DNA from: Bigelowiella natans CCMP2755
Lineage: Eukaryota; Protista; Cercozoa
Direction: 5' to 3'
Length of the DNA stretch: 64,000 nt
NCBI GenBank assembly: GCA_000320545.1
Contig: ADNK01001335.1
Coordinates: forward strand, 13,846 to 77,845
Below, in pieces: positions 6,032-38,099 of the stretch. Position numbers and translations under genes: made by a program. The notes beneath the pieces were generated by a model. It saw only the letters and a list, made by a program, of their open reading frames with translations, had not been told where the DNA came from and ran no database searches. The number at the start of each line of letters is the position of its first letter. The first letter of the stretch is position 1.

Positions 6032-6073
<42 letters not shown>

Positions 6074-6570: not shown

Positions 6571-6610
<40 letters not shown>

Positions 6611-6618
6611 GCGCGCGC

Positions 6619-6649
<31 letters not shown>

Positions 6650-6729
6650 ATGTACCTCATATTGCTGATTAGGGTATTTTTTCTTCATCATGTTTAATTC
6701 TTGAGCCAAAAAGCTATGCAGAATGACCT

Positions 6730-6781
<52 letters not shown>

Positions 6782-7122: not shown

Positions 7123-7162
<40 letters not shown>

Positions 7163-7945: not shown

Positions 7946-7992
<47 letters not shown>

Positions 7993-8666: not shown

Positions 8667-8743
<77 letters not shown>

Positions 8744-10200: not shown

Positions 10201-10332
10201 CTCTACATTGGCGTGCTAGTAGTGGGAGGGGGGTTGGCAACAATGTGCTTCGACGACGAAATACGGACTATTTTGGCTGGCGAGCATTACGGGTAGATTG
10301 CACGCCCGAGGCCCTGTTCACTTACGAGGAAA

Positions 10333-12809
10333 ATGGAGGAGAAGGGCAAGGAAAACGGAGAGGCCGCTGTTGTGAAGGATCGGCGTGACGAAGATACGAA
10401 CCAAGCATTATTCAACGCAATTCAGAGAAAGGATGAAACCATTCAAAAATTGCAAAATGACTTCGATAAAGTGGTGGAGCGGCTTGCAGAAAAGGTGACG
10501 AGCCACCAAGTGCACAAAAAATATCAATCGATATTGATTTACTATGTTCCTTTACAGAGTCTCCTCTGTGAGCGCTTGGCCGGGGAGCTTGAGGCAACGC
10601 GTAGATCGTTACGAAATTATACGTCTACAAACATGTACTTCCTTAGTTAGAGCTTTTCAGATTTCAAACTTCTGATACGTTTCTTTGCACACATTTAAAA
10701 AGAGTATCCAAGCTGAAAGGAGCATTAATCGAACCCGCCAGCGTCCGTGGGAACTCCAAGACAAAAACATCACAATCCGGCATGGCGTCGCCGATGTTAC
10801 CGCCGCCGCCGCCTCCTCCCAAATCGCCCATACCGCCTTCGCCTTCATCCTCCCCCTCCGCGTCACAAGCCGCAACGATTTCGCCGTCGGACCAGAAAGA
10901 AGTATCTTCCATCTCCACACAAGTCCTTATTAAAGAGACTCCAATATCCGAAGATAAGTCTACTGGTGCTGACACTCAAGACTTAAAAGAGAATCTCCAA
11001 CAACCGAACAGCAACTTAACCAATATTGAATCAGGACGCTTACAAACTTCGCGACACCGAATGAGAAGAAGCTCACTGCCGCCAAGATCCCCGCCATTTT
11101 CGCCCCAGGCATCTGAAATAGCGGCTATTACCCTGAAGGCGAAAGAGGATGCTCGTATAAATAGAGATAAACTAGAGAAAGACTCGCTTGTAATACAGCT
11201 CAGAAGGGAGGAGGCAGCACTGCGGCGCTTGGTTGCTGAAAAAGAAGCTGAGAGAGAGACTATTGCTGCCAAAGCCGGTAAATTGTCCCGAGATCTCGAA
11301 ACAGTAACTACTCGTTTCACCAGCGTCTCTGCTGAGATATTTGACGTAAAGTCGAAAGCAGAGGAGGAAAAGAGTATTTGGGAAAGGGACACTAAAAGAT
11401 TCCAAGCGAAGATGGCCTTACTCCAAGAAGAGTTGCAAGAATCTAAAGTCCTGACCGAAGACCTTAAAAAACAACTCCAAAGTGCTGCTACCGAGAGGGA
11501 AGAGGCACGCCAACGAGAACAAGAGATTGTTGAACAAATGAAAAAGCAGAAAAACGGAGACGTAGGCCAAACCGCGGAGTACCAACGAAAATGGCAGGAG
11601 GAGAAATGCCGAGCGGACGATTTGGGGCGGAAGCTGAAGCAATGTGAGGAGAAGTATCGGGAGGAAATACAGGCTATAGCAGACTCGATGGAGCTCTTGA
11701 AGCTCGAGAGCAAGATAGGGGCCAAGAAAAGTGTTCGTATGGTTGCAGAGCTGAAGAAAGGATTGCAAGAGAGCGAGACTTCAAAAGAACTTCTCAAGGT
11801 TAACATGGCCCAGCTACGTATCTCTTACGAGCAAGCCTGCCTCAAGCTGAACTCTCTTAGAGCACGTAAGCCTCCAGCGTCACTTCCCCCTCCCCCACCC
11901 GCAGCAGGCCGAGACGAAGCCACCAACTCATCCCCAGAACACAACAAGAGTGGACAACACCTCTTACAACACAACGCCAACCATGCAACTAGGGGAAACA
12001 CGAGATCTCTCTCTTTCTCAGCAGGGTGGAATAGCAAAAAGATGATGGGCGTTGGCTCTCCAGATTGGCAAGAAGTGAAGACATCAGATCCAGTAAATAC
12101 ACGGAATCGGAGGAAATCAGCTGGGTTCCGTGGGCGGCCACCATCCCTATCTTTGATGGCCCCCGGCGGTGCTCTGCTCTCATCACACACACCAATCTCT
12201 ACTCCTACCCCCTCCCTGCCTTCATCGCCATCGGCTTCGTTATCAAAGCCACCGCCCCCCCGCTGGAGCAAAGAAGCAGAGAGTGAGTATTTCTTGGATG
12301 CAGGTAAGAAGCTTCAGGACGCAGTGGAAGTAAGCTTTTCTCTGAAGAAGAACAACAAGCACTTAAAAGACCGAATACAGGAGCTTGTGCAGAAACTTTC
12401 GGAGAAGGAAAGGCTGATAGCAAGCTTCAACTCTCCTAAAATCGCAGAAAAGATGCGCAGGCTTGGGGATATGGAATCTGAAAATTTGCTTTTAAGAGAG
12501 TCCCTGAAGAATATGGCGATTGAGGTCAGAGAATTGAGCGACAAAGTCAACCTTTACAAGAATGGTATTTACGGGAGCAACGGAATTGGAGTTGAAGTTA
12601 AAGGAGAACAGGAACAATCGAGAGGATTCTTCCAATCTTCTTTTTCTCAGCCTGATCAAATGAATATGTCAAAAATACAAGGGCAAACTTTGCCCGTTCA
12701 CACATCAAAAACTAGTGGTGCTGATGATGCTCGTGAGGGTGGATCGCCGCTGAGCAGCACAGAATGTGTTGAAACTGAGGCTACACAATTCACCGAGATA
12801 GAGGTGTAA
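10333..12809 (+). CDS. Coiled-coil, proline-rich hypothetical protein (two short 5' exons plus one long exon)
   Basis: 675-aa ORF 10782-12809 is open upstream to an AG acceptor at ~10660; E/K/Q-rich heptad-like segments and poly-Pro tracts; 5' exon MEEKGKENG... at 10333. Confidence 0.7.
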
Positions 12810-13569
12810 GAAGGAGCATGGAAAAAATCATTTTCAAATAAATTTTCTGGTAATTGGCCATGAGTTTCCGTTCGTGTGCATTAATTTGCGGCTGAGATAC
12901 ATTACTTATTTAGTTATCATAATTGTGCTCCGCGCGACGAGCATTTATTGTTACATGCTTCCATACCCTGTCAATATGGTCAACTTTTATTAAAAACTAT
13001 GTGTAATCCGGGCGGTACAATGACGTCAGATGCATTGAAAGTTGAGAGATAACTAACGTTTTGCGGCAAATTTTATGCATAACACTTTTTGCCGCGCGCT
13101 TGCCCAGTCGGGGTCGCGCAGGGGGTACATATGCGCTTGTATCCTGCTGCTAGCTTATAAGCTAGCCCGCAATCTGCCTTGTTAGCTTGCACGACGTGCA
13201 TGGCGCACGCATACCGACTCTTTGTGTAGCACCACACGCATTCTGTACGCTAGCTACACTATCTAGCTATGTTCACGCATAGCATGACAGCATGACTAGC
13301 TAGCTAGACGTAGGCTGCAATGCGCAATAATAAATGAATTCCCGTGGATGGCTGATGCACGCTCGCATGAACCCCGCCGCGGCTGTATTACTAGAGTAGC
13401 AGATAAGAGGTGGGCAGCTGCCAACCACTAGACGATGGCAAGCAAGCATGATTAATCCCAGTGAGTCGTCTGATACCCATGACAATGTATACACCTGTTT
13501 AACTTTGCCAGTTGGGATATAACATCTAGAAATATCACAGACAGCAATTTTTTTGGGGATCTGCACGAT

Positions 13570-14655
13570 CTAAACGACCGTGTGCGTGCTTTTGAAGTGT
13601 TGCATGTAGTCCGAAGCCTTTGATAGTATCATGAAAGTGGGCACCCCACCAACGACCACCTAACAAAGAACAGCATCAGCGTTGGATTTATGTGTTAGTA
13701 TTGCTTGTTTAGTACCCCTTTCTGGATCAAAGCCTCAGCAAGAGGGTCTTCCATGTTTATTTCTCGAACGCTATGTGGCTTACCGCCGTTCTCCACTTCA
13801 ACGTATACCGCAATATTTTTAATAGTATAATGTTTCTTCTTATCCCACTGCGGCTGTGTTCCTTTGGGTGGGAACATTTGCCCCAACTGCTCTTTGAAGG
13901 ACCGTAACTCATGCATATCCTGGACGAAATCTGTCACATAGAATTCCGGATACATGAAAACTACAGGCCAGTGGAGACAGCCGTTTTTATCGAGCATTGG
14001 CTTATGATCGCCACTTAATGTATCAACCGTAGTCCTAATTTTCCTCAACTTGATCGATTCGGCCAGTAAATCAGCAAATTTCCGGTCAGCATCCTTTGAA
14101 CAAAGATACATATTTGGATGATGACTGGCGCAACGCGAGCAACACACTGAACTAACCTTTTTCATAGCCTTCACGCGCTCGCTTTCTTTCTTTTTCTCCA
14201 TTGAGATTTCCAGTTTTTTGATGAGATTAGCGACATAGTTCCGCTTTAAAAAGTCGTCCTTGGCCCATTTCAATGCATGCTCATACCACTTCATCGCCTG
14301 GGAATGTCATAACAAAGGATTGCATCGCAGTTTAATCATCTGGTACTTGATGAATTGCGCACAGATTCACCTCTTTGGGTTTCCCTAGGGCTTCTGAGGC
14401 TTGCCCAGCACGACAATAAGCTTTAGAATTCTTGTGATTGAGTTTTAGTGCTTCCTGAGTATAATGGCAGCAGTGAAGGTGTTTCACTCACTTTGTCTTC
14501 TTAGAACAACAAAAGCGGGCACTTTGTTAGATATACTACTTTACAATCGTCGATAGCTCGTCCGTAATTTTGTCTGTGATGGTGAATGAGAGCTCTGTTG
14601 GAGTAAACCTGCAATGAACGATTATAGATTTTAGATTTTAGATTATAGATTATAG

Positions 14656-14733
<78 letters not shown>

Positions 14734-15670
14734 TCGCAATTTAGTTTTTGCTTAGTGATTGGTTACTTGGCTCTCTAATCGAAGATCGCCACATTCGCAG
14801 TCGAGCGCCTGTTAAAGTAAGAAGAAAACCTACTGAGCTCGAGAGAAGTGCGTGGAACGCATCATTACAGCAATTTCAGGTACTCATAAACCTGTTGGTA
14901 GAACGTCAATGCATCGTTCCACCTGCGTTTCCCAGCTTTGTAGCACTGATGCATGCAACAACACAGAATGAGTAACTTCGCATGAAAGCCTCTGCCGACA
15001 ATGTCACTTTATCTCTCTATACAATATCAATAAATTACAACACATTGTTACTGCTACATCGTTTCCATTCTGCTTGCAATTTTTGGCCTTCTCTTTGGGA
15101 TCCTGGCCAGCTTCGATAGCCTAAGAATTGTGTTTTATACGATACGACCAAGGTTGATTCGGCTTTTACAAAGATGATCACCAGCAATTACCATTTCGAA
15201 CAACAATATATGTCAATACCTCAATCATTTTCCATGCGTCTCCTTGATCTTCCTTTCGAGGTCTTACCTGTCAGTGTTTCGTATCATTACCGTGTAGATA
15301 ACCAATGCTGCACGAACTTTACCTTGGCGAAAAGAGGAATCTGGTTCAAATACTTATCAATCTCGTCAGGATCATCAGGAAATCTTTTCCTATGAGGTAA
15401 CATATATGAATTTGGTGAGGGACAAATCCATCTGCTGCAGAATTAAAGTTTTGTGCCAGCCCTTGCTGTTTCATATTAGATTAGAGCTGATTACGGGTCT
15501 CTCGACGGTGGAATTCCCATTGATACCCTCTCCAGATCATCTTTGATTTTTTCAGCTTCCTCTTTCGAAACCTTTTTCGATTCTTTGATTTTTTCAGCTT
15601 CCTCTTTCGAAACCTTTTTCGATTCTTTCACTCCAGATTCCTTCGCGGGAGGTGCCGGTGTTGTCGACAT
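13570..15670 (-). CDS. TTC4: Cns1/TTC4 family TPR co-chaperone of Hsp90/Hsp70, multi-exon
   Basis: TPR exons (CYKAGKRRWNDALTFYQQ; VYSNRALIHHHRQNYGRAIDDCK; EALKLNHKNSKAYCRAGQASEAL) plus wheel-domain motif LHWPVVFMYPEFYVTDFVQD; last exon VVVGGVPTFMILSK...TVV*. Confidence 0.85.
15540..15628 (-). repeat. 42-bp in-frame tandem duplication in TTC4 exon 1
   Basis: KESKKVSKEEAEKI is encoded twice by identical 42-bp units. Confidence 0.9.
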
Positions 15671-16722
15671 CCGTAGGTGACGATGGGGCGGAGAAAGGTG
15701 AAATTTCGTTATTGAATTCTGGTTGACGACATGCAATATTCGTTGTCTCCCAGTGAAAACTTAATCCAAATTTATTTTACGAGGTACTAATCCATAGCAC
15801 GATGACGACTTCAGATTATCGAAGTTTCTTATAGATTTATCGAACCCAGCGGATAATTCCCAGAAATAGGTGTGGGGGTACGTGGCAAGTAGGTAAACCG
15901 CCTTCCGCTTACTTCCGAGGCAAGTTTTTGACGTAGAATTAGGTAAAACAACCAAAAAAACACCTTATTTGCTGGCAGAGCTTTGATTTAAATGCGAATT
16001 TGGGGAATACGTTAATAAAATTGTTGTCGGAAATGTACGATGTGTCTATTTTCTTGTGATAATGTATTTTTGATCCCAGGCTTGATTTTGGAAGAGAGAC
16101 ATAAAAATATTATTGACGCAAGAAAATATTTATTGAGTCATAAAATCGTTTGTCACTTGAACATTCCTCCCCCTTACTTTGGATGTGAAACACGGGTTGG
16201 GAGTTTTGGCGCTTATAACAACTTGAATCATTATTCTCGGTAAAACGTACCGAATAGTAAATCATAACTTCGTGCTTTGGAACAAAGGTCAGGTCAACAA
16301 ATAACTGAATGGTGTCGTTTCGCAGTCAGAAGTTCACATTTTTTTTAACTTGCATCATGTGTCCAAAACCATAGTTTTCTCTTGCTGATGGCATTAAAAA
16401 AATCTCTTTAGAAATGTAAAAGGAAAACATAGTGAAAGTAAAACTTTGTAGGATGAGGAAATGTAATTATTTATTATCCAGTCTCAACGAGAAGGCTTTG
16501 TCTTGCAGCTACTCAGCATCGACAAATACACTCCTAGTCTAAGGAGGTCTTCGTAATCGTGCCTCTGATCCCGAGGAGTGCAACAGGTGCTTTTAAGAAG
16601 ATCTGTGTGTGCAAATAATCTTAGCTTGCAATTTTAATTAGGAAATCTAAGAGGAGGTTGCACAAGATTTTTGGCAAGATTAGCGACCGTTTGCCTAATT
16701 CCTTAAATAGAGGCATAAGGGA

Positions 16723-17405
16723 ATGACAGGAGGCATGATATCGCAATACGTTTCCACGCCGTCTCTAATTATTTACAAGGACCAGCGGTACCTCATTATG
16801 GACGCTCCCACAGATGCTAACTTAGACGAGTACCTAAAGGTAATAAATATAATTATCTAGATGCTGAGTAGCGTAGTGGGTTTGAAGGATTACTAGAGAG
16901 GACAAGGGTAAATCTATGAGAAACACTGAAAATATTGATTTTAACCATTGAAGGAGTTGAAAAACGAGAACGTAACGGTTCTCGTTCGAACCTGCGAGCC
17001 TTCATACTCGGTGGAAAAGCTTACACGGGCAGGAATCACAGTCAAAGTAATTATATGATTGATGCATATAGTTTTGCTCTAAGAATCAATTTAATAACTT
17101 AGGAATTGCCCTTTTCTGATGGGGCGCCACCGCCCACTGAAGTTGTGAACAAATGGCTTGGGATTGTAAAGGACGTTTTTGAGAAAAAAGGCGAGAAAGC
17201 AACCATTGCCATCCATTGCGTTGCTGGGCTCGGAAGAGCACCTGTTTGCGTTGCAATAGGACTGATTGAAAGAGGAATGGATCCTGAACTTGCTATCCAA
17301 GAGATTCGTAACAAACGTAGAGGCGCAATCAATCGGCGCCAAGCAAAGTTCCTATTCGATTATAAGCCCAAAAATCTGGCTCAAGGCTGCTGTGCTGTCA
17401 TGTAG
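16723..17405 (+). CDS. PTP4A: PRL/PTP4A-family prenylated protein tyrosine phosphatase (exons 16723-16839, 16954-17046, 17103-17405)
   Basis: YLIMDAPTDANL, VLVRTCEPSY, FSDGAPPP, catalytic HCVAGLGRAPV, RRGAIN and C-terminal CCAVM CaaX box; phase-0 GT-AG introns. Confidence 0.95.
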
Positions 17406-17970
17406 TGTGAAGTAATCAGAAGGTAGCAAGTTGCACATAGGGTTCACCAAGAGGAGTATGTCATCAGAAGAGTATTCTCCAATAAGGAGAAAATATACTG
17501 TTGTGGGAGTCGCTGATTTTTGCAGGTGATCTTCTAGGCCTTGGGCATGGGGCATTGACGACTTTTTGATTATTTATATATTCATTCAATTTTGGTCTAA
17601 TTAATGTTGCGGCAACCGATGATTATAATCAAATGCATCACCACCGTTCTTGGCTGACGCAGCGTTTATTACATGCGCATAGCGACCCCTAGGACCGCAC
17701 AATATATATGTATATATATACATATATACAGGGGGGTTCCACAATTTGGTGCGGATTCTGACTTTTTTCTGAGAAATTTTGTGCAGTCTCAGGCGGTGGC
17801 GCTTGCGCCGCGCGAGCAACGTGACAAGCAACATGGAGCCCCATGAGGCTGCACAGCGCGTAGTTGGGATGCACACTTTGTTCAATTCTGTGTCAGGTGT
17901 TGGTGACACACATCTTCTAGATTTGTTTGCCCACATCTGTTCACATCCGCACACTTTGCCCACAATCGTG

Positions 17971-19925
17971 TCATTCGTAATCGGTGCTGCTGCTGTCACT
18001 GCTAGCAAGCTCATCGCCAACCTCACGCACTGCTGCGTCAATCGCGTGGTCTCTTTCCGACAATTTCATGAGCTTGTTCTTCATCGTCATTGCCATGATC
18101 TTGTGAAGTTTTTTCCGCTTGCGAGCCTTTCGTTTCATCTTGCGGTGCACCTGTTTGCGCAACTGCTGCCTGGTCTGTGGATGCCCTCCGCTGCAACAGC
18201 ACCTGATGCAGCGACCGCATCCGATGCAGCGCTTGCAGTTCTTGTGACAGCTCAGACCACACGTCCCTGTGTGGCAGACCTGCTGCGGCGGCGGGGCATC
18301 TGTGCTGTCGTCCGATCCACACTCAAAGCCATCAACATCGTGTGCAGCGCTTTTGCCGCCTCGACGGGCATTTTTCTCACCGCGAGCATTGGGCCCCGCC
18401 TTGCTGACCTGTGTTGCCTTCGATGTGCCCAGCTTGGGCGCTGGGACGCTCTGCTCAGTCGCGTTTTCTGCAGATTGCGTCGATTGTGCCTCCATGGCTG
18501 CCACTCGCGCCAGCAGTTGCTTCACCATGCGCCCACTTTCAGCACAACGCTCGTTCGCTGCTGCCAGCTTCCTCTCGCACTCCGCCTTGATGCGCGCGGC
18601 GCTTTCGTGCTCATCATCCTCACTCTCAGTGATGTCGCATGCCGATTCCGACTTTCGGCTCGCCGCAGCTGCTGATGCCCCGCCACGCCGTGCAGCCCTT
18701 CCTTTTTTTGACCTCCTTGTGTTGCGTCCTCCGCCATTCCTCCTCTTCTTGTTCTTCTTCTCTGACGGCTGGTGGACCACCAAAATTGGATCATTCTCGC
18801 TGTCGCCCTCGCTAGGCACGCTTTCCACCTTCTTTGTCGCGTCCTGACTGGTGGCTGCTGCGTCCGGCTTGCGCAGCTCGTCCACCCAATTTCTCAGGGC
18901 GTCGTCCACAACACTCAGGCAGCTGCCAGACACAAATGCGGGGGGCTGGTTGCTGTGACCTTCGAAACTGGCGCCAGTTTCCTGAGACTCCCATCCAGAG
19001 ACAGCATGGCAACTTGCAGGTGGGCACTGGACCTGAACGTCTTTTTTCGATCCATGAGAATTGATCCCATCACCCACTTGTTTCTGATGTCGCCCTCCTT
19101 CGCCATCATTGCCTTGGTCGGCTTCTCAAAGGTTGCGAGTTGGCATCTTGACACAGAGACAGCGTTCTCTGCGTGTGCCACGCCGGCAAACAGAACGCAC
19201 TTCCCCACTGACCACCCGCCATTGCCATCGTGCAACCGAATCGTGCGGCTTCTTCTGGCACACGAATTGCAGTGTGCCAGCACTTTGCCTTCGTGGTCAC
19301 GCAGAGAGTCTGGAAGATTGTGGCTCCGCCTCCTTGCTGCGCAGACACGGTGATGAATGATGATGAACAATGAACAATGAACAATGAACAAAACATGGTC
19401 ACACACATCACGTGTGTGCACATGTGCACACGTGTGCACACGTGCATGTGCGCATTGCACACCTTGACTTCCCACAGCCGGCGCCGACTCATCATTGCTG
19501 ATCTTCTCATGCCCCTCGAGCCACATTTCAGCGCCTTCGATGTTTCCGATTGAGCAGTCGATGAGCGATTCGTCCAGTTGAAGCTCCTTCGTCACCTCGA
19601 CAGGTGCTTTTTTCATCTCATCATCCGGAAACAGCCAGCGAATTGCCTCAGGTTGCCTGCCATTTCCATCGTCTTCAATGAACTGCTGCATCGAAACATT
19701 GCCCCACTTGAGCCCAAGTCCTGCCTGGGTGAGGCTTTTCGTCGCCACTGTTGCCTCGAATGGATTCTCTCGGACCGGCTCTCCCAAAAACTCAGACCCG
19801 AAGGCCGTGAGTTCATTCGAAATGCGCAATCCAGCCCCGATGATGCGCCCGGTGTCCTCTTTCAGCAGCACAGGGATGAAGTTGTCGCCCACAATCTCAT
19901 CATCAAAACAGATTCCCGCGGACAT
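17971..19925 (-). pseudogene. Second, divergently oriented gene of the element (unknown product; Cys-rich and acidic/basic C-terminal part), TpA-hypermutated
   Basis: Overlapping protein-like frames 18915-19925 (MSAGICFDDEIVGDNFIPVLL...) and 17971-19077 (with C..C-rich CHTGTCGLSCHKNCKRCIGCGRCIRCCC); an intron-like mutated microsatellite at ~19340-19462. Confidence 0.45.
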
Positions 19926-20030
19926 TGGCCACGATTTTTCCCGCGCTTTTCGCGGCTGAAGCCGGCTTTTGTCTGCCCAAGCAACAAGTGCAACAACTTC
20001 TGCTCAATGTTGCCAAATGCACTTTGTGGT

Positions 20031-20190
20031 TTTGGACACAATCCATCAACAGTGAAGTCGCAGGAAAATGATCGCAGTCAGAACAGTCTTGCGACCCTGC
20101 GAACACAGTTTCCACATGCAATCCATCCACAGCAGAGTCGCAGGATGACAATCGCAGTCAGAACAGTCTTGCGACCCTGCGAACACACTC
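20031..20190 (+). repeat. 80-bp-period direct repeat (2 copies) in the element's intergenic region
   Basis: ATCGCAGTCAGAACAGTCTTGCGACCCTGCGAACACA is identical at 20071 and 20151; flanking parts align with TG/CA swaps. Confidence 0.9.
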
Positions 20191-20622
20191 ACAAACACCT
20201 GTTCGACCCCTTTCGTCTGCCACGGAGTGTCCACCCTGTGCCGCAAATTGAGGGACCAACACGAGGTGCCCAAAAAATCAAGGGGGGGAACCCCCCTCTT
20301 GGAGGGGGGTTCCCCCAAGCCTTGAACCCAAATGCTGATCTGCTCGCATTGGTGATTTGGGTCAAATCTCGCTTCCCAACCCCGCTCGAGTGGTGCAGGA
20401 CAATCACCATCAGCTGTGCGAGTGGCCACCTTGCTCCACAAAGGGAGTGCGACGGAGTTGCAAAAAAAGTTGAGGGGGGAACCCCCCTCCAAGAGGGGGA
20501 AACGCGCCCATTGGTGATTCACCAATCTCGCTTCCCAACCAAACCCGCTCGACAAGGGGCGTGGGCTCTCTGACACTGACGCGAATTCCAAGCCTCCGTT
20601 CAGGCTGATCTGACTCGAACAC

Positions 20623-23406
20623 GTGCACAGGATGAGCGCATCGTGCTGGTGGGGCGCGGAGATTCCACGGCGCGGTCGTGATGTCGATGATCGACCTGCT
20701 CCAGGGAGCTGGTGGGGAGGCGTGAAGCATCTAGCTGATGCCAGGAAAAAGGATCCTCTCCCAAGCGACGTTGAAGTGCTCGAGGCGGTGTCAGAGCCTG
20801 TGGGCAGCTGGTGGGGAATGGGGGGGGGTGGTGATGGCACGGCCAGTGGCAATGCATCCTTGGTCAGCACACGTGTGCATGCGCATGGACTCGCAATGCA
20901 GCATGTGCAATCATGTGTGTGCATGCATGTGCACACACGTGCAGGTGCGTGTTCATCATCTTCAACGCCGCTCGTCGAGACGCCAGCTGACGACGACAGC
21001 AAATGGCAGTGCGACAGGTGCGGGCCAGAGTTTGTGACAAGGAGCGGGTTCACGCGTCATCCTCGGAATGGCCCTTTGTGCACCGAGCGGAGGACTGGAA
21101 AAAAAGCACATGAACGAACCAGAACTCGCCTCAATGGGCAACAGACACTCAAAGTGGCGCGCGTGTTCGTGCAGAGAGTGTCTGAAGGCTTGACCCAGCA
21201 CGAAGCTGCCCTTGCGGTGGGGCATCGATCATCACAGTGCACAAAGTGGATGCAACAGCACGGATTGGGTTGGCGGCCGAGCGAGAACACGTGTCTCCAG
21301 CCGCTCTGGAAGCGGCTGGGCCGCACTCATCGAACACCTGCGACAAAAACAAAAAACCTTCGTGGCGGCGCTGGGCGGCCATTGGGAGAGCCCCTGTCCT
21401 CCCACGGAGCCGTCCTCCTCTCCGCAGACAGTGAGGTGAAGGCCTGGCCCTCAAAATGCAGCACACGACTGGTGCTCGACCAGTTCGAGCACACTCTTGC
21501 GACTCAATGCGGCTTCCTTTGGCACGGCGCAACCCACGAACAAAAGATTGCCAAGGTGAGGCGACATGTGTGTGGCCCAGAGAATCCGTCCAGCTCGATC
21601 GAAGGAAAAGTTGTGTCAAACGAGATGCAGCGCTTGCCACGCGTTGCAACTGCCGCACATCTTCAACAAGAGGCGGTGAAACGTGCAGCGAGAGAAGCTG
21701 GCACAACATCCTGGCGGGATGGACTGGATGGAGTGGCCGCAGTGGATGAGTGCGTGATTGATCAATCGGGCTCTGTGAGGAGAGAGAATTCCGCTTGCAC
21801 GCGGGGGAAATTCGTGTTCTGGACTTGCATGACAGGCGGCTCGGGAGGACAAACCGTTTTCGTGATCTTGGTGCCAACGCAAAACAAACGCTTGCAATGG
21901 ACACACGAGCAGATTCACGAGGGAGCAATGCTCCACTGCACCGATTGCAGATTCGTGAACACCAAGATTCACAGTCGATTCATGCTGCACTTTTGCCCAG
22001 TCACAGAGCGGAAGGAAATTTTGCTGCATGACAAGGCGTCGTGTCATTCGTCGAAGCTGATTGAGTTGATGACAAGATCAACTGGACGCGCACCGGTGTG
22101 CCCTGACATTGGAGGTGCAACAGCCTGCGCTGCGCCACCAGATGGACCCAAAGCACATGGAGCTTTGAAGAAAAAATCGACATCTCATTTTTGCAATTTT
22201 TTTGCGAAACTCTTCCGCGAGGCGAAAGCCAGGGGTGAGGAGCATTCGCAACTTCCAACCATGACCGCGCAGAACTTGGCGGACTTCCTGAGCTCAATGA
22301 TCAACAGAGAATGCACTCCGAGAGTGACGAGAGACGCAACATTGTCATGCATGCCGATCACAAACCACCGCGTTGACTGTGACACTCGCCACAAAAATTT
22401 GCGTGAGCTTGTGGATGTCACACACAGGGAAGCGGTGGAGAACAAGACTGCGCTCGAAATCAAGGTGAAAAGGCACACGTGCAGCAGATGTGGACAACAG
22501 CACTGCTCTCCGGCCAGCATTGCCGCCAGGCAGCACGAGAATGAGGCATTGGGTGAGTGCCACATGCTTTTGAAGAGAATGCCTGTCCCGTCTTCTCGGT
22601 TGGGAGTGACAATGGTCCCGCCATTCAAGGTTGTGTGGTGGGAGAAAACCGACGACGAGAGGAATGGCGAGCTGGCACGCAGATCAGCAGTGCATCAGAG
22701 AGAGCTGAAAACAAGGCCGGGTCATTGGCGCGTGAAGCACGAGGGCGAGGCAAAGTTCCACACACGCAAATGGACGTGCAAATTGAGGCCACCAATCACG
22801 TTTGAAATCATCTCCGAGGATGACAACAGCAGCAGCGCACACAGTGACGACTCCTCAGACGCACCACCAGCTCCACCGCGACCTGCAGCAGAGCTCGAAG
22901 CCGGCAGCAGCAGCGATGGCGACAGCAGCGACGAGCCACTGGTGGCTAGAGGCAGGGGCAGGCTAGCAGCAGGAAGACGCATCGCAATTTCCAGCAGTGA
23001 CGACGAAGAGGGATCGGAAAGTGAGAGCAGTGCCCCTCCCGAGTGCACTGAAGATGAGCTAGACTGGGATTGGCCTTCCCCTGACAAGCTTCCAGACGGC
23101 GAGTTCTTGACCATTGAGGACGCTCGCGGCGCATCCACTTGGGTGTTGTGCGCTGCGAAGGAAGATGAAACGTGCGCTTGCGTGGCTGCGAAAGGCCGAA
23201 GAGTGCCAAACAATCCAAACGTGTCGAAGGAAACCGTGCTGAAATTGAGCGTGGACGTGAACCCTGCGTGCGCTAGAGCCACTTTGAGATCCAGGTTTGC
23301 TCGCAGCACGATGCTGGTCATCGTGTTCAGCAGAGCATGCTGGAGCAGCAAACTGACCAATCACCCTTGGATTGTGTGCACGTGCAAGAGCCCTGCATGC
23401 ATGTGA
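20623..23406 (+). pseudogene. Hypermutated pogo-like DD36D transposase with C2H2-like zinc fingers and HTH
   Basis: KWQCDRCG..F.TRSGFTRH (C2H2-like); HTH-like QTLKVARVF...EAALAVGHRSSQCTKW; AAVDE (first Asp); ILLHDKASCH (second Asp); GGATACAAPPDG (third Asp, 36 residues later, cf. pogo 'GG.T...QPLD'); second finger RHTCSRCGQQH. No Tyr in 927 codons. The ORF probably reads through a former intron. Confidence 0.75.
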
Positions 23407-23873
23407 CATGCATGGACTCTGCACGCAACACATGCATGCACACTCAGGCTCTTGGCGTGCGGAACCAATGGATGAAATGATTTGCAAAACCCATCACTCA
23501 TGCACAGATGACTTCAGGTGTTGGGTTGGTGTGATTCGAATTGCGGGTTCATGAGAAGCATTGAATGATGCATCCTTGTGTGCATGAGATGATGTGTGCA
23601 TTCTCAAAATTCATGTTGTGCATGCAAAAAACAAGAAGAATGCATGCCCGATCTAGAAAGAAAACATGCAAATGCAAAAAAAGCCAATTGTGTGTCATGC
23701 ACTGTCTGTCCATGTGAGTGCGTGCATCTCAGACATTGCGGACAATGCACATGCTTTGCGATGCTTAGGAGCATGTGAGTGCACTTTGTTCAATGTTTGC
23801 TTTGGCGGTACACGTGTGGAAAACGCACATGTCAAATTGGTGGGTACGTCTGCAGAAATTGCTTCCACATCGC

Positions 23874-23924
23874 AAATTTTTCTGAAAAATTTTTGCACAT
23901 CGCAAAAATTTTTCAGAAAAATTT
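23874..23924. repeat. Perfect 23-bp inverted repeat with 5-nt loop near the right end of the element
   Basis: AAATTTTTCTGAAAAATTTTTGC-ACATC-GCAAAAATTTTTCAGAAAAATTT. Confidence 0.95.
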
Positions 23925-24049
23925 TCCGCGTCTGCACTGTTCTGTAGATCACACATCGTATACATATCTACACACAGAATCAGGCTTCATAGCGCAGGGC
24001 GCACATTGCAATTATGCAGCGTATGGCTGTCATTAGAAATCGTGCAGCC

Positions 24050-25260
24050 AACAGCTAGTAAGCCTAGAAGCTAGCTAACAGCGGTTGAAGAGATTCAGAG
24101 CTCTCTGTAGCTCAGAGAGCACTGCTAGACTGTTGACTCTCTATCGTAGCATCGCTAGATCGTACGGCACATTTATTTGATACGTTGCGTTTCAACACAA
24201 TTTCCATGCTAGCACATCTGACACAATGAGTGCTGTAGTCGCGGCTTTGCACAACCATGTTAGGACTAGCTAGCTAGTTAGCTAGAGGATGACAATTGAA
24301 CAACTTTCAACTCACATCTGCTCAATTCATTAGTGTTCATTGCATCCTTCTCATTGTTCCCATCTAGCCATCTAGCTATAGCTAGCTAGCTAGCTAGCTA
24401 GCCATGCTAGCTGCATAGCATGCTAGCATGTATGCTAGATCTGGAGAGCGTAGCTAGGTAGCCATACAAAATTGCACTGCATTTCATGGCTAGGCGGCTA
24501 GCTAGCTCCGTCACAGAGCTCTAGAGCTAGCAGGCCTGCTAGCTTGCTCACACTGGCTAGCTAGGCCTGCAGACGACATGTACGAAGACTCATATCTTTA
24601 GATCTGCATGTATGTACATCTGCCCCACGCGCACAGCAGGCACAGCAGCAAGCTACTGCAGCTGTGCGAGTGTCTAGACATGCTAGCACACAGTAGATGT
24701 ACGTAGATGTGCTAAGATGCGCGTGCACACCTGCTACTAGACTACTACTAGACCTAGCTAGCTAGCCTACATGCTAGCATGCTAGTAGCGTGCTGCTAGC
24801 TAGCATCGAAACCGAAACTCGCTCTACGAGTACATCGTAGCTCTAGCTAGCTAGCTAGAGCTAGCCAGAGCTACTAGCTAACAGCTCTAGAGCTAGACAG
24901 ACGTACAGCTAGCTAGCTAGATGCAGAGCTAGAGACTGATTGCTAGCTAGCTAGACGACTGCACATATTCTAGCAATGGCTAGCAATGCTGGAATGCATG
25001 CAGCACAACAGCACACATCTAGCTAGCTAGACATGCTGTGGACATCGCTAGTCATAGCAAGCTAGATCGCCTGGTCGATCTGTTACAATGTGGAAATGTG
25101 GACTACGATACATGCTAGCATGCAGACCTAGCTAGCTAGAGACATCTAGACGTACTGGCGCGTGTGCATTGCGACTAGCTAGCTAGCTAGCTAGAGCATT
25201 CTACGTTACTAGATCTAGCTAGCTAGAGCTGCATTGGACAACTGAAGCTAAGATGATTTA
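24050..25260. repeat. CTAG/AGCT-saturated low-complexity tract
   Basis: About 70+ CTAG counted by eye in 1.2 kb, with (GCTA)n runs; no ORF. Confidence 0.9.
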
Positions 25261-25586
25261 CGTAACACTTCGTTTATGACCAGTATCGATGAAGTAGGTT
25301 TGAACTGTATGTGGCATGCCACTGGCACATACACCATAAGACTTCTTGGCGCGCAGCGTCGCGTCACTGTCAGGTGGCGACCAAGCATGCATGACTAATG
25401 CGAAGTTCGTAAGAAACACACGTCCCAAGCAAGACGAGTTCACAAGTTCTTACTTTCTAAATCACAATTGTCAATTTAATTTCAGGGAAATAAAGAGTGA
25501 TCTTTAGTGTACAATTCAAGTGGTAACTGAATAAATAAGTCTGACGAATGAGTGAAACTAAATATCGGCGATAATTGTTGTACATC

Positions 25587-28500
25587 TCAATTATAGTATC
25601 TCTGAAATTCAGAATTCGTATCGTACATAGGATTCGCATTCTGGTTTATCTGAGGATATCCACCTTGGTATTGGTTTTGACGATTCCATTGTTGCTGCTG
25701 CGCATGAGCAAATTCTTGCTCTCTTAATAATAGCGCTTGTCGCTGGATTTTATCTCTTTTGTAAAATTCTTCTTGGCCTTTCCCGAAATCGAACTTCAGT
25801 TCGTTTGGAATGTTCCATTGGGATGTCTTTGTTTCCTGATTATAACAAGTAATAAGGATAGGACTTATGAACCGAAATGTATTATAATGGCATTACCGTG
25901 TTAAAAAAGAAGATTTTGTAGTTTCCGTCTTGAGTCATGTGCAATTGATACATCTTCAGTCTTTCATTGCCAGCCATCACGTAATTCATGAGAGTGTAGA
26001 GAAATTTATTCCTCAAAACAGACGGTAAATTGCTCAATTCAGGAGATCTGCCATGCAAGAAGAAGAGCTGGCCACCAGCTACAATTAAGTGTAACCATAT
26101 ACTCTTTAACATTGGCATATTGATGCTGTCTAGGAATTGGAAGATTTGTGGCTGCTCCCATTCTAACATTTCTGGGATGCGATTGTTTAATGGCCAATTT
26201 TCTGGAGGGCTTGCTGCAATGATATAATCCTCTGGTGTGTTGCTGTAAAAAGCATTAATTTGTTGCTGCTGTTGTTGCCGGATGTCTTCCGCTCGTTGTC
26301 GCTCCAAGTCCTTCTCGAAATTCTCTAGCGCCCGTTTTCTCTCCTCCTCATTCAACGCCTCTGCATCTATGTGCTCGAGAAGTAAATTGGGCATATGGAA
26401 GCCATTCATCCAGTGGTTTGGTTTCAGATCGCCTTTTCTCTTCATGGCCATCTTTGCAAGGGCAAGTTTCGCCTTCCATATTTCTTGCTTCCGTAGATTT
26501 TCGTTTCGAGTTTCTTCATCCTCTTCTTCTTCCTCCTCCTCCTCCTCCTCCTCCGATTCCTCCTTCATTTTCCCCTTTCTACTCGATCTTCTAGAAGACT
26601 TTTTCTTTTTGCCGGCCTTGGACTTGGACCGAGTTAGTCTCCTGCGTCTGGGCGTGGATTTCAGTTTTTTCTCCATTCTAATGTATGATTGGTATTTCTT
26701 TAATGCGGCCAAAGCATCTTTTTGTTGCTCCATGTTTCCATAGCGTGCTAGAACAAACCACATAAGTGATCCTTGCGGAAGCTCTTTCCGACAATTTTCG
26801 TATGGGTTATAGACAGAGCTCTTTGCATCAGGTCCAATTCCGGCTGCAGCGCTCAATGCGGCTATAGTTTCTGCTGACAGTTTAGATCCTGACGGCGAGG
26901 ACTTTTTATCGGCACCCAAAACCTCCCCGTCGCCACTTTTCTCTGCCTCTTTCTTACCGGTCTTGCTCTTCTCGTCTTCCATTACCATTTTATTTTTAGA
27001 GATTTTTACGCTAATTGAAGCAGATTTGTCGTTTTCCTGACCCGGTTGCCAAGCCCCGTCAGCTTCTATTTTCTCCATTTCATCTAAAATCTTTTGCTCG
27101 CTTTTCGAAGCAATCGCCTCCAATGTTTTCTGTTCCTCCTCTGTGACTTCTGCATCTTTACTGCTTTTTATTGCGTCGTATTTAGTCATCGGAAACTCAC
27201 AGCGGTAGAGATCTTGCAAGTCGGTTGTCTGGAATACGCGCTGGACTTGTTTCTCATCCACGACCCGTAGGGCCAATCCACGCTTCGTCAGCTGCCTTTC
27301 ATATATTTTTTGCTCCATCGTGTCGTGGGATACGAGTCTGTAGACATACACATTCTTCTTCTGCCCAAATCGATAAATTCGGAATATTGCCTGCAAATCA
27401 TGCGATGGGTTCCAGCTGCTGTCGAAAATAATTGCGTGATTCGCACCTACTAGATTGATTCCCAAAGAGCCGGCCTTCGTAGACAAGAGAAATACCTTCT
27501 GTTCACTATCAGGCTTATTAAATTCATCGATGTCCTTCTGTCTGACATCACACTTGATGGAGCCATCGATTCGGAAGAAGTTTTCATTTTTATAATAATC
27601 CAAATGCTTTTCCATCGCCGTTTCCAAGAGATCGAGTGTGAGTAGACTTTGAGAGAAAATAATGACTTTCTCTCCTTGAGCTATTATTCTTTCCATAAGT
27701 TCGATCGCAACTTGAAATTTGGGCCCTGTTGTTATGTTGAGATCCAGGTCTTCTTCATCTTCGTCTTCATCCTCATTTTTTGGTAGGATGCTTTTGAACC
27801 AGTCGTGTTTCAATCCATTTTTCGCAACACCATGCATAATTGCGTCTATCTTCTCCCTTTTCTTCTGCAGCTGCAGCTTACGTTCTTCTGCTTTTGTTTT
27901 CTCACGCACTTTATCTAAATCGTCATCGAGCATAGCGTCTTCATCCTCGTCTTCGTCATCATCATTGATAAAAAGATCCAGCATAGCCCTTTCCTTCTTT
28001 TGATTTTGCGTACGATACCATTCCTTGTAAGCCAATCGAATTATTTGTGGATGATTCCATATCTTATTGAGTGAGTGATAGTCTTGGAACAGAGACCTAA
28101 AGTTACTAGAAATCAGACGATGCATTCTGGATGTAATTAACCAATGCTATTATTGTGTTAGTGTTCAGTTGGACCTTCTCGTAATATTTCCCAAGTAATG
28201 TGCATACAGCTGTTTTTGAAGAGGTGAGAGTGAAACAAACAACGTATAGACGCTTTTTTCTGGCAATTCGTGGGCGATGTCTCTATACCCTCTCCTATGG
28301 ACAAATGCCTGAACTTTGTTGTGAAGAACAAACGCTCGTTCACGCATAAGCCTAACGTCATCTGCATTACTATCTACACATTGGCCATTGAGGATCGGAG
28401 ATTCAAAACGATTACGGAAATCCTTCGGAGTCCCCAAGAAGTTTGGTCGTACAAAGTCGATCATGAAAAAGTACTCCATCAAATTGTTCTGCAGTGGTGT

Positions 28501-30480
28501 GCCAGTGAGAATGACTCGCCGCTGTGTTCCGATTTGGCTCAGGACTTTCGACAGACCCGTCTTAGAATTTTTAATTCTGTGTCCTTCGTCAACAACAACC
28601 AGATCTGCCATTTCTAGGAGTAAGGACTGGAATCTGTCTCTCATTTTCTCTTGCACTCGCTTGCCCTCGCACAAGTTTCGAATCATTTCATAACCAATAA
28701 TTAAGACCCCCCCTTGCCTTCGCCACTTTTCAAGAGCTCTCAATCTAGCCTTGTTTGAACGCATAACTTCTGCCATACTAACGATGCTTGGACGTTCATC
28801 TTCGTCGAGCCATTTTTCAAACTCAGCTTTCCAGTTTGTGAGGACATTAACAGGACATATTATCATCGCCAATCGGCCAATTCCACTAGCCAGAAAAGCT
28901 TGAATAATTGTTATGGATTGGAGTGTCTTTCCTAGCCCCATTAAGTGGGCCAAGATACAACCAGTGCCTTCTGAGAGAGTAACTACGTTTTCCTCCTCAT
29001 CTTCTTCACTCGAGTCGCTATTTCCATCTTCATCCGTTCCCTTTGTTTTCTAAATTGCATAGAGTTCAGGCTTTATCTAGGTCCTATGAACATAAAAAAT
29101 ATTGCTGCTACCTTTTTGTTGTCTTTGATATCGCATATGTTGCTCCAGATGAACCTGGTTCCTGCAATCTGATGCTTCTTGAGTAATTTTCCTATGGTTG
29201 CCGCTGCGAATACGGGCTCTTCAACTTTGGAGTGGTATGGGTTCAAGCACATCTTCTGTTTGTTCTTATTGTACTTTGCCCCTTGAGCCTTGTACTTCTC
29301 CTCCCTATCTTTTAATAATTCCTGCCGATACATCTGAAGCTTCATAGCCTAAATTTGATTTCAACTTAGGGTACAACTTTAAACAAAATTTGCTGAAACT
29401 GACCTTTTTCGTCTCCTCGTTCAAATCTTCGTCGTCAAGTATCTTATTGATATTTCGTCTGTACTTCCCCTTCGGTTTGTTCACATCTGATTTTCTCTCC
29501 TTCTTCTTTTTTTTTTTCTTCTTCTTTCCATATTCTCTCCAATCTTTCTTGAACGAATCCAGCTGCTCCGGAGCACATACAAAGCATTTCCAACTCTCAG
29601 CATCTTCGTATTTCTTGAAATATTTTTCGCCCATGTTCCTGCGGATAATTTCCGGCTCATATGCTCGAGGGCAAGTATCACAAACCCACAAGTCATCACC
29701 CTTCTTTGCAGACCAGCGGCAATAGTTATCATGGCCGTCCTCGTCTTTTGGCCATTTGCATACGTTATACTTTTTAATACAATTTCTGCATATTGCCGTT
29801 TGGAGGAGAGGATGCTGGTACATGAATTTGTCGGTGTATTGCTTGAAACAAACTGTGCACGGGTATCTCTTTTTTTCCTCCTTGACCTTGACCTCAGATT
29901 CTTCACTTTCTGCTTCAGATTTCTCCGCAGAATCTTCCCCAGAATCGCGATCATCATCATCATCATCATCGTCAGATTGATCTTCCGAATCTTCTTCATC
30001 GGAATCAATTCCAGATAGACCTTCCGAGTCTTCTTCATCGGAGTCAATTCCAGATAGGCCTTCCGAGCCCTCTTCATCGGAGTCAATTCCAGATAGACCT
30101 TCCAAGCCCTCTTCATCAGAGTCAATTCCAGATAGACCCTCCGAGCCCTCTTCATCGGAGTCCTTGTCATCGCTCTCACTGTCGAAAACTTTATCGTCCT
30201 TATCTTTGTCCTCTTCCCATTTTTGTCCTTTACGTCTTGTCATCGTTAATCGCTTAGGGGCCTTCTTCTTTCTGCCGGATCTCCTTGGTTTTGCCTCACT
30301 ATCGTCCTCGTCGGAACTATCTTCCGAATTATCTTCTATGTCCTCTAGCCTATCGCCTTTTTTTTTCTTTCCGCCCTTCTTTCGATGCTTTTCCTTTGAC
30401 TCAACCTCTGATTCGTCGTCAGATGCCTGACAGGATATTGCTTTCAATTTACAAACGTTGACCTTGATGATTCCAGCACA

Positions 30481-30522
<42 letters not shown>

Positions 30523-30644
30523 TACACACTTCTTCTGCCTAATCAGCTGTGTACTGTTCAACGTTATTGAGTAGATTTCAACATTTTTTGATAACGATGT
30601 GTCTATGCGTTAATGAAATACATATTTTATGGATATATGTATAA

Positions 30645-30680
<36 letters not shown>

Positions 30681-31585
30681 CAATATCGTCGTCGACATCG
30701 TTGGATCCGTCATCTTTGCCTTTGTGACGCCGTGTCTTCCTTGATATCTTCTTCCTCTTTTCTCTTTTTGAACGCTCGGCTTTTTTCCTTTCCTTTGACT
30801 TTTTTGAAGTTTTACGTTTCTTTGACTTGCTTCCATCGTCATCATTATCTCCTTCATCATTTTTATGTTTTTCTCCCTTCTTCTGTCGTTTCTTCGATCG
30901 CTTTGGTTTCTCTTCCTCTTGCATGCTGCTGTCGTCATCAAATATGTCTTCATCGTCTTCGCTCATTGCCTTACCGGTGAGCTTCATCGTTCTTTTGCGC
31001 AACTCCTGCTGATATTTTCGTTTCAATTCTTTCTTAATTTGCTCAAGCTCTCTTTTGCCAAATCCCTTTTTCTTTTTGGATCTTTTGGGCTTCTTGCGCC
31101 TAACTTCGAATTCAAAATCACTTTCATCCCCCTTTCCATTTTTCTTGCCTTTCTTGCTTTTCTTGGGCCTCATTATTATTCGGTAACCTGAGTCAGAACC
31201 AGAATCCTCGTCTGAGTCCTCGTTTTTCCGTTTACGTTTCTTTTTCTTGTTGGTAGTCTTGGTCTCCTCTTCAACGCTATCATCCTCAATTCCATCTTTC
31301 TCTTCGTCATCGTCCAAATCAAAATCCAATTTATCACTATCATTATCGTCGCTATCATTGTCAATCTCATCGTTGGATCCATCACCACCATCATCATCAT
31401 CGTCGCCGTCGACATCATCTGCTTCATCAGCCTTTCCTCTTTTTGAACGACGTTTCTTGTTGCTACTCGCCGACTTATTGTCATCATCCTCATCATCTTC
31501 TTCATCGTCATCTGAGAGCTTAAATTCCTCGAAGAAAGCATCGTAGTCGAAATCGTCCTCCTCGTCCTCTTCCTCTTCCTCTTCT

Positions 31586-31616
<31 letters not shown>

Positions 31617-31806
31617 TTTTCCCCTTCCTCTTAGAACGCCTTGACGATGTTACAGCCTTACCCCGAGCAGGTTTTGGAGTGCTGGATTGTCTTTTCCTGA
31701 TTGACTTCCGCACGAAAAGTGGACCACGCTGTTTCTTGTCATTAGAAGATTCAGAATTTTCTCGGTTCTTACTCTTAGCCGCCCGGCGAGGGACACGCCT
31801 CGGCAT
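25587..31806 (-). CDS. ATRX: ATRX-like SNF2 chromatin remodeller with ADD domain, multi-exon
   Basis: ADD-like CTVC...HPLLQTAICRNC...DEDGHDNYCRW...VCDTC...RNMG...WKCFVC; ATPase motifs GCILAHLMGLGKTLQ, VVVDEGHRIKN, LTGTPLQNNLMEY, FSQS, FRIDGS, LLSTKAGSLGINL, WNPSHDLQAIFRIYRFGQKK; acidic/basic N-terminus; last exon ETKTSQWNIP...QRYYN*. Confidence 0.92.
29990..30161 (-). repeat. 39-bp in-frame tandem repeat (~4 copies, DSDEEGSEGLSGI) in the ATRX-like gene
   Basis: Repeated TCTTCATCGGAGTCAATTCCAGATAGACC-like units on the + strand. Confidence 0.9.
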
Positions 31807-34302: not shown

Positions 34303-34339
<37 letters not shown>

Positions 34340-36399: not shown

Positions 36400-37950
36400 A
36401 TTGATGCAAGACGACGATCACATGCAAACACGACACTTGGCAATGTGCATGTGGGTAACTGCAGCCATTTCAGCTGTCAAGTGCACAAACATGCGAACAC
36501 CAACAGCTCAGATTGCGAAACCAATTGAATGCCATCATGAATCGAAATGATGAGATGACATTGCTGACTGTGCAGCTGAAAAAGAAGCAAGGACAGCTAC
36601 GCGCACTGCGTGACATCGACTGTGGAACACACGTGCTTTCAAGCGCATGAGACGCATCGCAAAAGACTTGATTGCTTCATTGTATCCGTCTCACACGTGC
36701 AGAGCCAGCGCATCAGTGAGGAACATTGTGTCCAGGTGCACCTAGACGTGCGTTGGTGCGCCGCTGTGCCAGTGACAACCCGCAACAATGACATCTCGTG
36801 CAAGTGCTGCTTGGGTGACTGCAAACGCTGTGTGTTCCGTTTTTGTTTGAGTCAACAAGAGTGTGGAACGTGGTCGACGGAGCGACCTCGTTCCCAGCCG
36901 AACTCCACGCGTGCAATGCCCCATCAGGAAGCGGTCTTGTGTCTGTGATGCATTGGAAGTTGTGATGAAAAACAATTGGTGCAACAGCTGACAGCGCCCA
37001 CAATGACGCAAGCTAGCTTTGCAAGGAAAAATTTTCAGCACGATTGTTTTTGTCAGCGCTGGAGCGGGTCGCACATTGATGGATTGCACACAGATGTGCA
37101 TCTTGCTCAACTCCTTTTCAAACCTTCTTCGCAATGTGTGCCATGACGTTCATCATCGCGCTTTGCAAAGTTTGGAGAAGCCTCGAGCATGTTGCATCGG
37201 GGCTGCATGCAACAACGAACAATGATGATGGTGGTGGTCTCAAACGCAAAACTTGCCCTTCCTCCATTGCATCTTTTGCACGTTCTTGTGTTGTCAGCGG
37301 CACACATGAGTGTGTTGCCATGCGTCAGATCCAAAGATGTTGACCCAAGTTTTCCGTGCCAAGACATGCATGCATTTGAGGTGCGACAAATGCCCTGAAA
37401 GGTTGTCGTGAGTTTCATGCGGCCACAAAGTGGGGCGTGCCACGTTTTAGCGGCTGCAGTGATGCCATCCATGGCCATCCATGCGATTTCTAGATGACCA
37501 GATGAGCACATCATGCATCATGAAATGACCGAATGCGCAAGTGCCTTGCTTCTGTGGATCATGTGCTAGTGTGGCACAATCTAGCAATTGCTAGCTGCGT
37601 GCGCGCGGAAAATGAATCGAATCAAGCATGAGAACCAACAAAACCAGAGTCCCCTCGCAATGTCATTTTGCAGCGCAACATCTGGAACATGTGCTGAACT
37701 ACGTGACGTTTGCGCGGACAGTCGAATCGCAAAATGAGCAGCCAGAAGCGGGCATGCTGTTTTGCACACGCATGGCAGCAGCGGACATGCAGTGCTCTGG
37801 ATGCATATGTAGATGCACAACAGGGACAAAGCTAGACGCACAGACGGTGCCGTGTGCCTACATCAGGTTGGACAAGACATCATGCAAGCCATGCCTCTGG
37901 GAGTGCTAAGACACGTGCAAGAATCGAGCTCGGCTTTGAATAGAAGCTAA
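36400..37950 (-). mobile_element. Degenerate TpA-depleted transposon relic, possibly MULE/Mutator-like
   Basis: Strong TpA depletion with CTAG retained. Minus-strand fragments HLEIAWM, PTLW and ICRTSNACMSWHGKL resemble the 'Y.E..W...P.LW...RTNN..E.WH..L' region of MULE transposases; frames are broken. Confidence 0.5.
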
Positions 37951-38099
37951 GCGCATAGCGACCCGCTGTAGTGGCAATGATCATAGAATAAGCATGAAGA
38001 TTGATTCACATTACAAGACCATCTTCATGTATAAATATCATCTTTGACGTAACGGCAAGGACTCGGTATCGAATCTTAATTAATTTTCTGACTTTGTTA

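Follow-up and report, generated by a model that had tools for sequence, protein, structure and literature searches.

In the current work, a 64,000-nucleotide stretch of the Bigelowiella natans CCMP2755 genome (contig ADNK01001335.1, positions 13,846 to 77,845; hereafter "the window", in whose own numbering all positions are given) was found to harbor a likely pogo-type DNA transposon, the core of which (18,001-23,660) has retained the dinucleotide TpA exclusively within the tetranucleotide CTAG. All eight TpA of this core lie inside CTAG, each at exactly the position listed in an earlier note on this DNA, which had claimed that no other TpA context survives there (Table 1). TpA outside CTAG is absent between the TpA at 17978 and that at 23766, a distance of 5,788 bp, the second-longest gap of this kind in the window being 765 bp and located inside a second TpA-poor island. 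In the background, for which the segments 1-17,700, 25,400-36,380 and 38,050-64,000 of the window were taken, CTAG accounts for 133 of 2,972 TpA (4.5%), and at this share the probability that eight of eight survivors are CTAG is 1.6e-11; the post hoc version, by which all eight fall in any single one of the 10 strand-merged NTAN classes, gives 8e-7. CTAG-only survival in the core is real and highly non-random.

Fungal repeat-induced point mutation (RIP) creates TpA. Its type of signature, i.e. C>T changes that raise TpA, was not found in the core, where TpA has a rho of 0.03 and CpA/TpG is raised to a rho of 1.54. TpA rho remains at 0.00-0.05 across five segments of 18,001-23,000, with a mean CA/TG rho of ~1.55 in 18,001-21,000 and of ~1.47 in 21,001-22,000. 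These rho values were computed here and may deviate slightly from the rho employed in the preprint of Mettrop et al. (bioRxiv 10.64898/2026.01.13.699255).

The mutator itself is not new, because TpA>TpG/CpA hypermutation has already been measured in B. natans mutation-accumulation lines by Mettrop et al. According to that preprint, two viral inserts acquired 211 and 20 de novo changes, of which 210 and 20, respectively, were A>G or T>C and invariably hit TpA; 124 TpA-poor clusters were recognized, DDE and reverse-transcriptase domains were in excess among TpA-poor genes, and an ADAT2-like deaminase was proposed from sequence and structure. The main text of the preprint contains none of the terms CTAG, context, flanking, trinucleotide or tetranucleotide, though its Table S2 or the logo in its Fig. 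2B may show flanking bases, and no other paper on a CTAG exemption was found in full-text literature searches, which cover few subscription papers. In their accessible parts, PMC4738411 and 10.64898/2026.07.28.741278 have no direct bearing on such an exemption, and PMC12695648 and PMC5890265 do not mention B. natans. The exemption of CTAG is likely an unreported context rule of this known mutator.

The direction of the changes is apparent from a 930-codon open frame in the core, the product of which (583-aa query) is 100% identical to the B. natans gene model eukprot:jgi/Bigna1/74500 and has as its sole other match, among 7,995 scored candidates, the ENA protein P0122, with 34-38% identity along the greater part of its length. 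Tyr is absent from the 930-codon frame, as compared to 25 among the 790 residues of P0122. The 21 P0122 Tyr located in the well-aligned part face nine His, three Cys, one Arg (CGC), three Phe and five other residues, but never Tyr, and 13 of the 21 thus face CAY, TGY or CGC codons, which are the products of TAY. Since His and Cys replacements occur in one frame, T>C and A>G must both have taken place on the same strand; furthermore, the top strand of the core contains 552 CA and 544 TG. The Tyr replacements together with this balance therefore indicate that TpA was lost through mutation on both strands, which agrees with the strand-symmetric, DNA-level TpA mutator put forward in the earlier note and with what the preprint measured in this species. 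Editing of an RNA intermediate by an ADAR-type enzyme, with subsequent fixation in DNA, would have the 5' U/T preference in common (preprint discussion), yet it is contradicted by the absence of any strand bias, by the resemblance of the element to a DNA transposon and by the preprint, in which the changes were seen to originate in chromosomal DNA, one of the regions concerned being transcriptionally silent; such an origin, which the earlier note had also considered unlikely, is exceedingly improbable.

The strength of the exemption was estimated from family totals (XTAY/XTGY/XCAY/XCGY) multiplied by the host TpA share, either the coding or the whole background serving as proxy, an approach that is possible because TpA and its products remain within one family. 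The core thus retains 8 of 13.9-16.3 expected CTAG, none of 73-103 expected half-sites (CTAH/DTAG) and none of 153-209 other expected TpA, corresponding to a CTAG slowdown of at least 6-8-fold at the point estimate and at least 3-fold in the worst case, with no upper limit. The shortfall of CTAG in the core is mild (P = 0.02-0.07), and when the partly mutated zones are added, 16 CTAG are left of 17-20 expected (P = 0.2-0.4). With host DNA as the ancestor proxy, at least roughly half of the initial core CTAG would remain, and a strict exemption is compatible with the data but not proven. In the partly mutated zones, half-sites outlast other TpA (12 of 33 versus 6 of 94 expected; 4 of 29 versus 4 of 85 when 37,801-38,000 is left out), a persistence which hints that flanks act in a graded manner, as enzyme preferences do; the corresponding Fisher test (14 versus 7, p = 0.002) hinges on 37,801-38,000, a boundary picked after looking at the data.

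Because TpA is itself palindromic, a block acting on TAG only or on CTA only would also leave just CTAG, and survivor counts are not discriminating in this regard. Context models were compared by the Akaike information criterion (AIC) across four data sets, the core exposure hitting the fit bound in the best models, so that only the product of exposure and CTAG rate is determined. AIC values were 78.1, 48.7, 82.0 and 50.5 for a one-flank rule, 82.1, 50.6, 85.0 and 53.0 for a CTAG-only rule, and 87.9, 60.5, 89.5 and 59.7 for a multiplicative two-flank model. A YTAR rule (113.7, 83.8, 111.3 and 79.8; 26-33 units worse than CTAG-only) and a model without context (155.4, 123.6, 152.2 and 120.2; 67-73 units worse) were rejected, as was, by the survivor-count fits, a model based on the stability of G/C flanks. 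In the core, none of 12-14 TTAA and none of 15-25 CTAA/TTAG remain.

Discrimination between one flank and the whole tetramer is provided by the products. In simulation, TGG does not increase under a TAG block, nor does CTG under a CTA block (odds ratio 1.0). The odds ratio of TGG is instead 1.30-1.56 in the core and 2.3-2.8 in the second island, and that of CTG is 1.22-1.69 and 1.38-1.90, respectively, level with the other flanks. As both products are enriched, neither flank alone blocks editing while the full tetramer is spared, and a strict single-flank block was rejected; with host DNA as stand-in for the ancestor, half-sites appear to have been edited on either strand. The notion that one flank decides, the adenine in TAG (or CTA) being unedited so that half-sites are still editable on one strand and CTAG alone on neither, does provide the best fit to the survivor counts, with a fitted half-site rate of 0.51-0.63 of the full rate where 0.5 is predicted, and CTAH is resolved to CTGH in more than half of cases (0.56-0.68). 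Nevertheless, the bootstrap intervals of this CTGH share (inside 0.35-0.97, one reaching 0.97) exclude 0 and 1 for all five backgrounds, CTG is enriched like TGG, and the odds ratios of TGG, TGA, TGC and TGT against the whole background (1.30, 1.26, 1.30 and 1.25) differ from those predicted by a TAG block (1.0, 1.44, 1.44 and 1.63), rendering a one-flank rule improbable. It is very probable that CTAG is slower as a whole tetramer. The earlier note had proposed a strict rule by which palindromic CTAG is refractory on both strands: the sparing of the whole palindrome is upheld by the TGG and CTG enrichment, whereas its strictness is not, given that 8 of 13.9-16.3 sites remain and that survivor counts slightly favor one flank.

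The second island is less saturated. CTAG is indeed, as had been claimed for 36-38 kb, the commonest surviving class in 36,001-38,000 (9 of 35 TpA), a range that takes in ~390 bp of an unmutated LRR gene, and it makes up 6 of 11 TpA in 36,400-37,800 (Fisher p = 3.5e-6 versus background). However, the other five are GTAA, CTAC (2), GTAT and TTAG, and because these contexts survive too, this island is not CTAG-only. In 36,400-37,800, CC/GG rho is 0.57 and CCGG is absent where 11 are expected, values beyond those that the TpA mutator produces in simulation (rho of at least 0.77). A second, C-directed process may have operated here, possibly a targeted C>T process.

As to the cause, the TpA>TpG/CpA hypermutation of B. 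natans likely stripped the transposon core of all TpA outside CTAG, and the island probably represents host DNA-level hypermutation of a mobile element by adenine deamination, a chemistry that is presumed here; from the sequence alone, such deamination looks the same as a lesion in the partner thymine or an error made by a polymerase. The activity responsible, probably a deaminase of adenine in DNA, would act poorly on adenine only when both a C two bases upstream and a G directly downstream are present. Every TpA presents two target adenines, one on each strand, and CTAG alone would escape because it is the sole tetramer offering this double context at both. We consider the chances about even that CTAG survives through such an intrinsic preference of the enzyme. 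This explanation is ranked first because half-sites seem somewhat slower too and because the literature searched reports no CTAG mark for B. natans.

Several points weigh against an intrinsic exemption of the whole tetramer. The evidence comes from one window and two islands with 16 CTAG in total, and all expected counts use host DNA as proxy for the ancestor. Survivor counts alone favor the one-flank rule by 1.9-4.0 AIC units, the enrichment of CTG is weak when GC-rich coding sequence serves as background (p = 0.05 and 0.1), and the multiplicative two-flank model, which is the usual form of an enzyme preference, is 4.5-9.9 AIC units worse than CTAG-only, an all-or-none palindromic effect being the outcome expected of a methyltransferase or a bound protein. 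Furthermore, a plain TadA/ADAT-like enzyme is no obvious fit, because engineered TadA8.20 performs best at UAG among eight RNA contexts (PMC12027372), a preference that would fit badly with an intrinsic cause and well with a protective mark. Finally, the CTAG-rich tract next to the element (see below) and the low CC of the second island point to further processes outside the model.

A palindromic mark or bound protein may shield CTAG, for example if a methyltransferase acting on CTAG, either the host's own or derived from a giant virus, N6-methylated both adenines (m6A) and thereby blocked the deaminase. This tentative alternative is ranked a close second because the effect is palindromic and requires the full tetramer, because the multiplicative flank model fits poorly, because m6A is resistant to deamination by TadA8.20 (PMC10625715) and because an algal giant virus methylates CTAG adenines, at ~59% (PMC12700378); partial methylation would also fit the partial survival of 8 of 13.9-16.3 sites. 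Its standing is lowered by the literature searches, in which neither methylation data nor a CTAG methyltransferase was found for B. natans, by the motifs given for chlorarachniophyte giant viruses, which do not include CTAG (no occurrence in the main text of PMC13196603), and by host DNA, in which CTAG is neither over- nor under-represented (Markov observed/expected ratio 0.98-1.16). Half-sites moreover seem somewhat slower too, which a tetramer mark would not cause. In a bolder form, which we regard as rather unlikely, the mark is palindromic and restriction-modification-like, is placed by B. natans itself, probably as 6mA on both CTAG adenines, and shields these sites from the organism's own DNA adenine-deaminating defence; old silenced DNA would then finally be left with CTAG, as would be the case in the adjoining CTAG-rich tract. 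CTAG might instead have been re-made and not spared, if C>T at CCAG, CTGG or CCGG replaced it as fast as it was lost. The second island, with 6 CTAG versus 2.9-3.3 expected, no CCGG and the CC rho below the simulated range, as well as the CTAG-rich neighboring tract, would suit this scenario. In the core, though, it requires 12% C>T at 67 CCAG/CTGG/CTAG sites, yet a stop has arisen at none of the 33 codons that a single transition would turn into TGA (P = 0.015), and CCAG/CTGG are not depleted (76% of their family versus 59-65% in the background). Fast-mutator simulations lacking a CTAG exemption retain no more than 0.3 CTAG per kb as against 1.4 observed, and at most one of the 211 de novo changes in the large region of the preprint was other than A>G/T>C. 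Re-creation at published background rates was rejected, since ~70 indels would have struck a frame that is still open. Replacement of lost CTAG is, on this evidence, very unlikely.

The mutated core belongs to an element whose boundaries and further features are listed in Table 1. Judged from its sequence, it is likely a pogo-type DNA transposon, a reading that is not proven because the ends align only in patches, their terminal inverted similarity being weak and confined to subterminal parts. No empty site was seen, and self-comparison of the window revealed no second copy. Pattern matches of the element in JGI metagenomes were confirmed in 0 of 257 and 0 of 88 cases, those in viral contigs in 0 of 170, and no shorter homolog was present among 6,452 candidates. 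Neither the product of the 930-codon frame nor P0122 has a Pfam DDE match; the closest Atlas clusters of P0122 are all DDE_1/pogo (feature score 0.78, template modelling score 0.26-0.34, below the Atlas bar), and three Asp motifs, which we take to represent the DDD transposase pattern, are by eye conserved between the two proteins. An AlphaFold model has a predicted local distance difference test score of 33, too low for a fold search.

Table 1 Features of the window. Positions are those of the 64,000-nucleotide stretch.
Feature	Position	Strand	Remark
Putative pogo/Tc1-like DNA transposon, 6,216 bp	17729..23944		Ends TA|CAG ... CTG|TA, from end sequences; boundaries inferred
Left TA, candidate target-site duplication	17727..17728		End of intact (AT)n tract
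Right TA, candidate target-site duplication	23945..23946		
Left terminal zone, partly mutated	17729..17979		3 TpA versus 13.7 at background density
Right terminal zone, partly mutated	23766..23944		3 TpA versus 9.7 at background density
Saturated core, 8 TpA, all CTAG	17980..23765		TpA rho 0.03, CpA/TpG rho 1.54
Surviving CTAG 1	18002..18005		
Surviving CTAG 2	18812..18815		
Surviving CTAG 3	20731..20734		
Surviving CTAG 4 and 5	22946..22966		Starts 22946 and 22963
Surviving CTAG 6	23059..23062		
Surviving CTAG 7	23273..23276		
Surviving CTAG 8	23653..23656		
384-codon open frame, Cys- and Lys-rich	17971..19125	-	No Pfam family
362-codon open frame	18915..20003	-	No Pfam or Atlas match
930-codon open frame, 0 Tyr	20614..23406	+	Zinc-finger-like N-terminus, likely pogo-type DDD transposase domain
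CA/TG/CG alternating tract	19409..19461		
CTAG-rich tract directly right of element	24040..25240		76 CTAG in 48 runs, CC/GG rho 0.32, no overall TpA depletion
Second, less saturated island	36400..38000		No identifiable open frame; survivors in 36,390-38,000: 7 CTAG, 11 half-sites, 4 others

Within the element, the 362-codon frame is possibly an upstream exon of the minus-strand gene to which the 384-codon frame belongs. The segments 20039-20187 and 20225-20552, located between the two divergent open frames, contain a tandem duplication of 80 bp and a G/C-rich hairpin motif in two copies, possibly serving as a shared promoter or as binding sites. The alternating tract at 19409-19461 is likely a fully converted (TA)n microsatellite by origin, and a similar array of CA, TG and some CG units, likewise resembling converted (TA)n repeats, was observed at 20867-20950. 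The CG units in both tracts, together with the Tyr>Arg (CGC) codon at 22087, suggest that both bases of a TpA are occasionally changed.

The tract at 24,040-25,240 contains 63 CTAG per kb, 16 times expectation, with 35 of the 48 runs being single CTAG; CTAG makes up 76 of its 105 YYRR tetramers, AA/TT rho is 0.45 and CCGG is absent. Point-mutation simulations fall short of its 44 CTAG per kb (runs collapsed), reaching no more than 3.3 per kb (60 runs), or 24.5 per kb (45 runs) when ad hoc AA>AG and CC>CT steps are included. As to its origin, our guess is that CTAG repeats slipped in DNA that is old and was once silenced. Four intergenic patches (13100-13330, 4760-5460, 1000-1460 and 55960-56720) show CA/TG increased to 1.24-1.51, GC increased to 1.6-2.0 and CC lowered to 0.54-0.68 at normal TpA, the first two being enriched in CTAG (30 and 11 per kb, respectively); the patches may be what decay has left of old islands or microsatellites. 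A 17-mer shared between 24,286 and 56,176 gave an extended alignment score of 206, within the range of shuffled sequences (165-222).

The host genes flanking the element, encoding a PRL-type phosphatase, an ATRX-like helicase and an LRR protein, have ordinary TpA levels, the gene for the ATRX-like SNF2 helicase (25882-31845, minus strand) adjoining the element. A single 2,672-codon open frame at 39196-47214 (GC content 57%), with by eye what is presumably a BEACH-like region, is considered to be a host gene because its TpA is only mildly low and evenly so over contexts. A degenerate tandem repeat family with periods of 114 and 318 bp occupies 62053-63005.

The present finding refines a published phenomenon on the basis of one window. 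For the enzyme behind this A/T-to-G/C genome defence, the preprint offers an ADAT2-like candidate; the sparing of one tetramer serves as a filter, since each candidate enzyme has to show it in vitro, and it runs counter to the UAG preference of engineered TadA on RNA. If it is true that the cause is a mark, a 4-base palindromic modification would be present in a eukaryotic nucleus.

Among known systems, the hypermutation described by Mettrop et al. is the closest, sharing the species, TpA>TpG/CpA changes on both strands, kilobase-sized islands and an enrichment of DDE endonuclease domains in TpA-poor genes; it differs in that the preprint, in its main text, defines the target as TpA only and in that its viral regions keep 3.3% and 9.2% TpA, whereas the island analyzed here is saturated. 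Fungal RIP is comparable, in line with the discussion of the preprint, as a sharply local hypermutation that is directed at a dinucleotide, consists of transitions and destroys mobile DNA, but it proceeds in the opposite direction (C>T), and no evidence for methyltransferase chemistry or homology pairing was found here. TadA/ADAT and ADAR deaminases share the A-to-I/G conversion and the 5' U/T preference, TadA8.20 being blocked by N6-methylation (PMC12027372, PMC10625715); unlike the activity inferred here, which spares CTAG, TadA8.20 edits UAG best on RNA (PMC12027372), and the natural substrates of these enzymes are RNA. The genome of the Aureococcus anophagefferens virus, finally, carries a mark on the adenine of the very same palindrome, CTAG, in an algal giant virus, although this is the viral genome of another host and PMC12700378, as far as accessible, connects it neither with B. 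natans nor with hypermutation.

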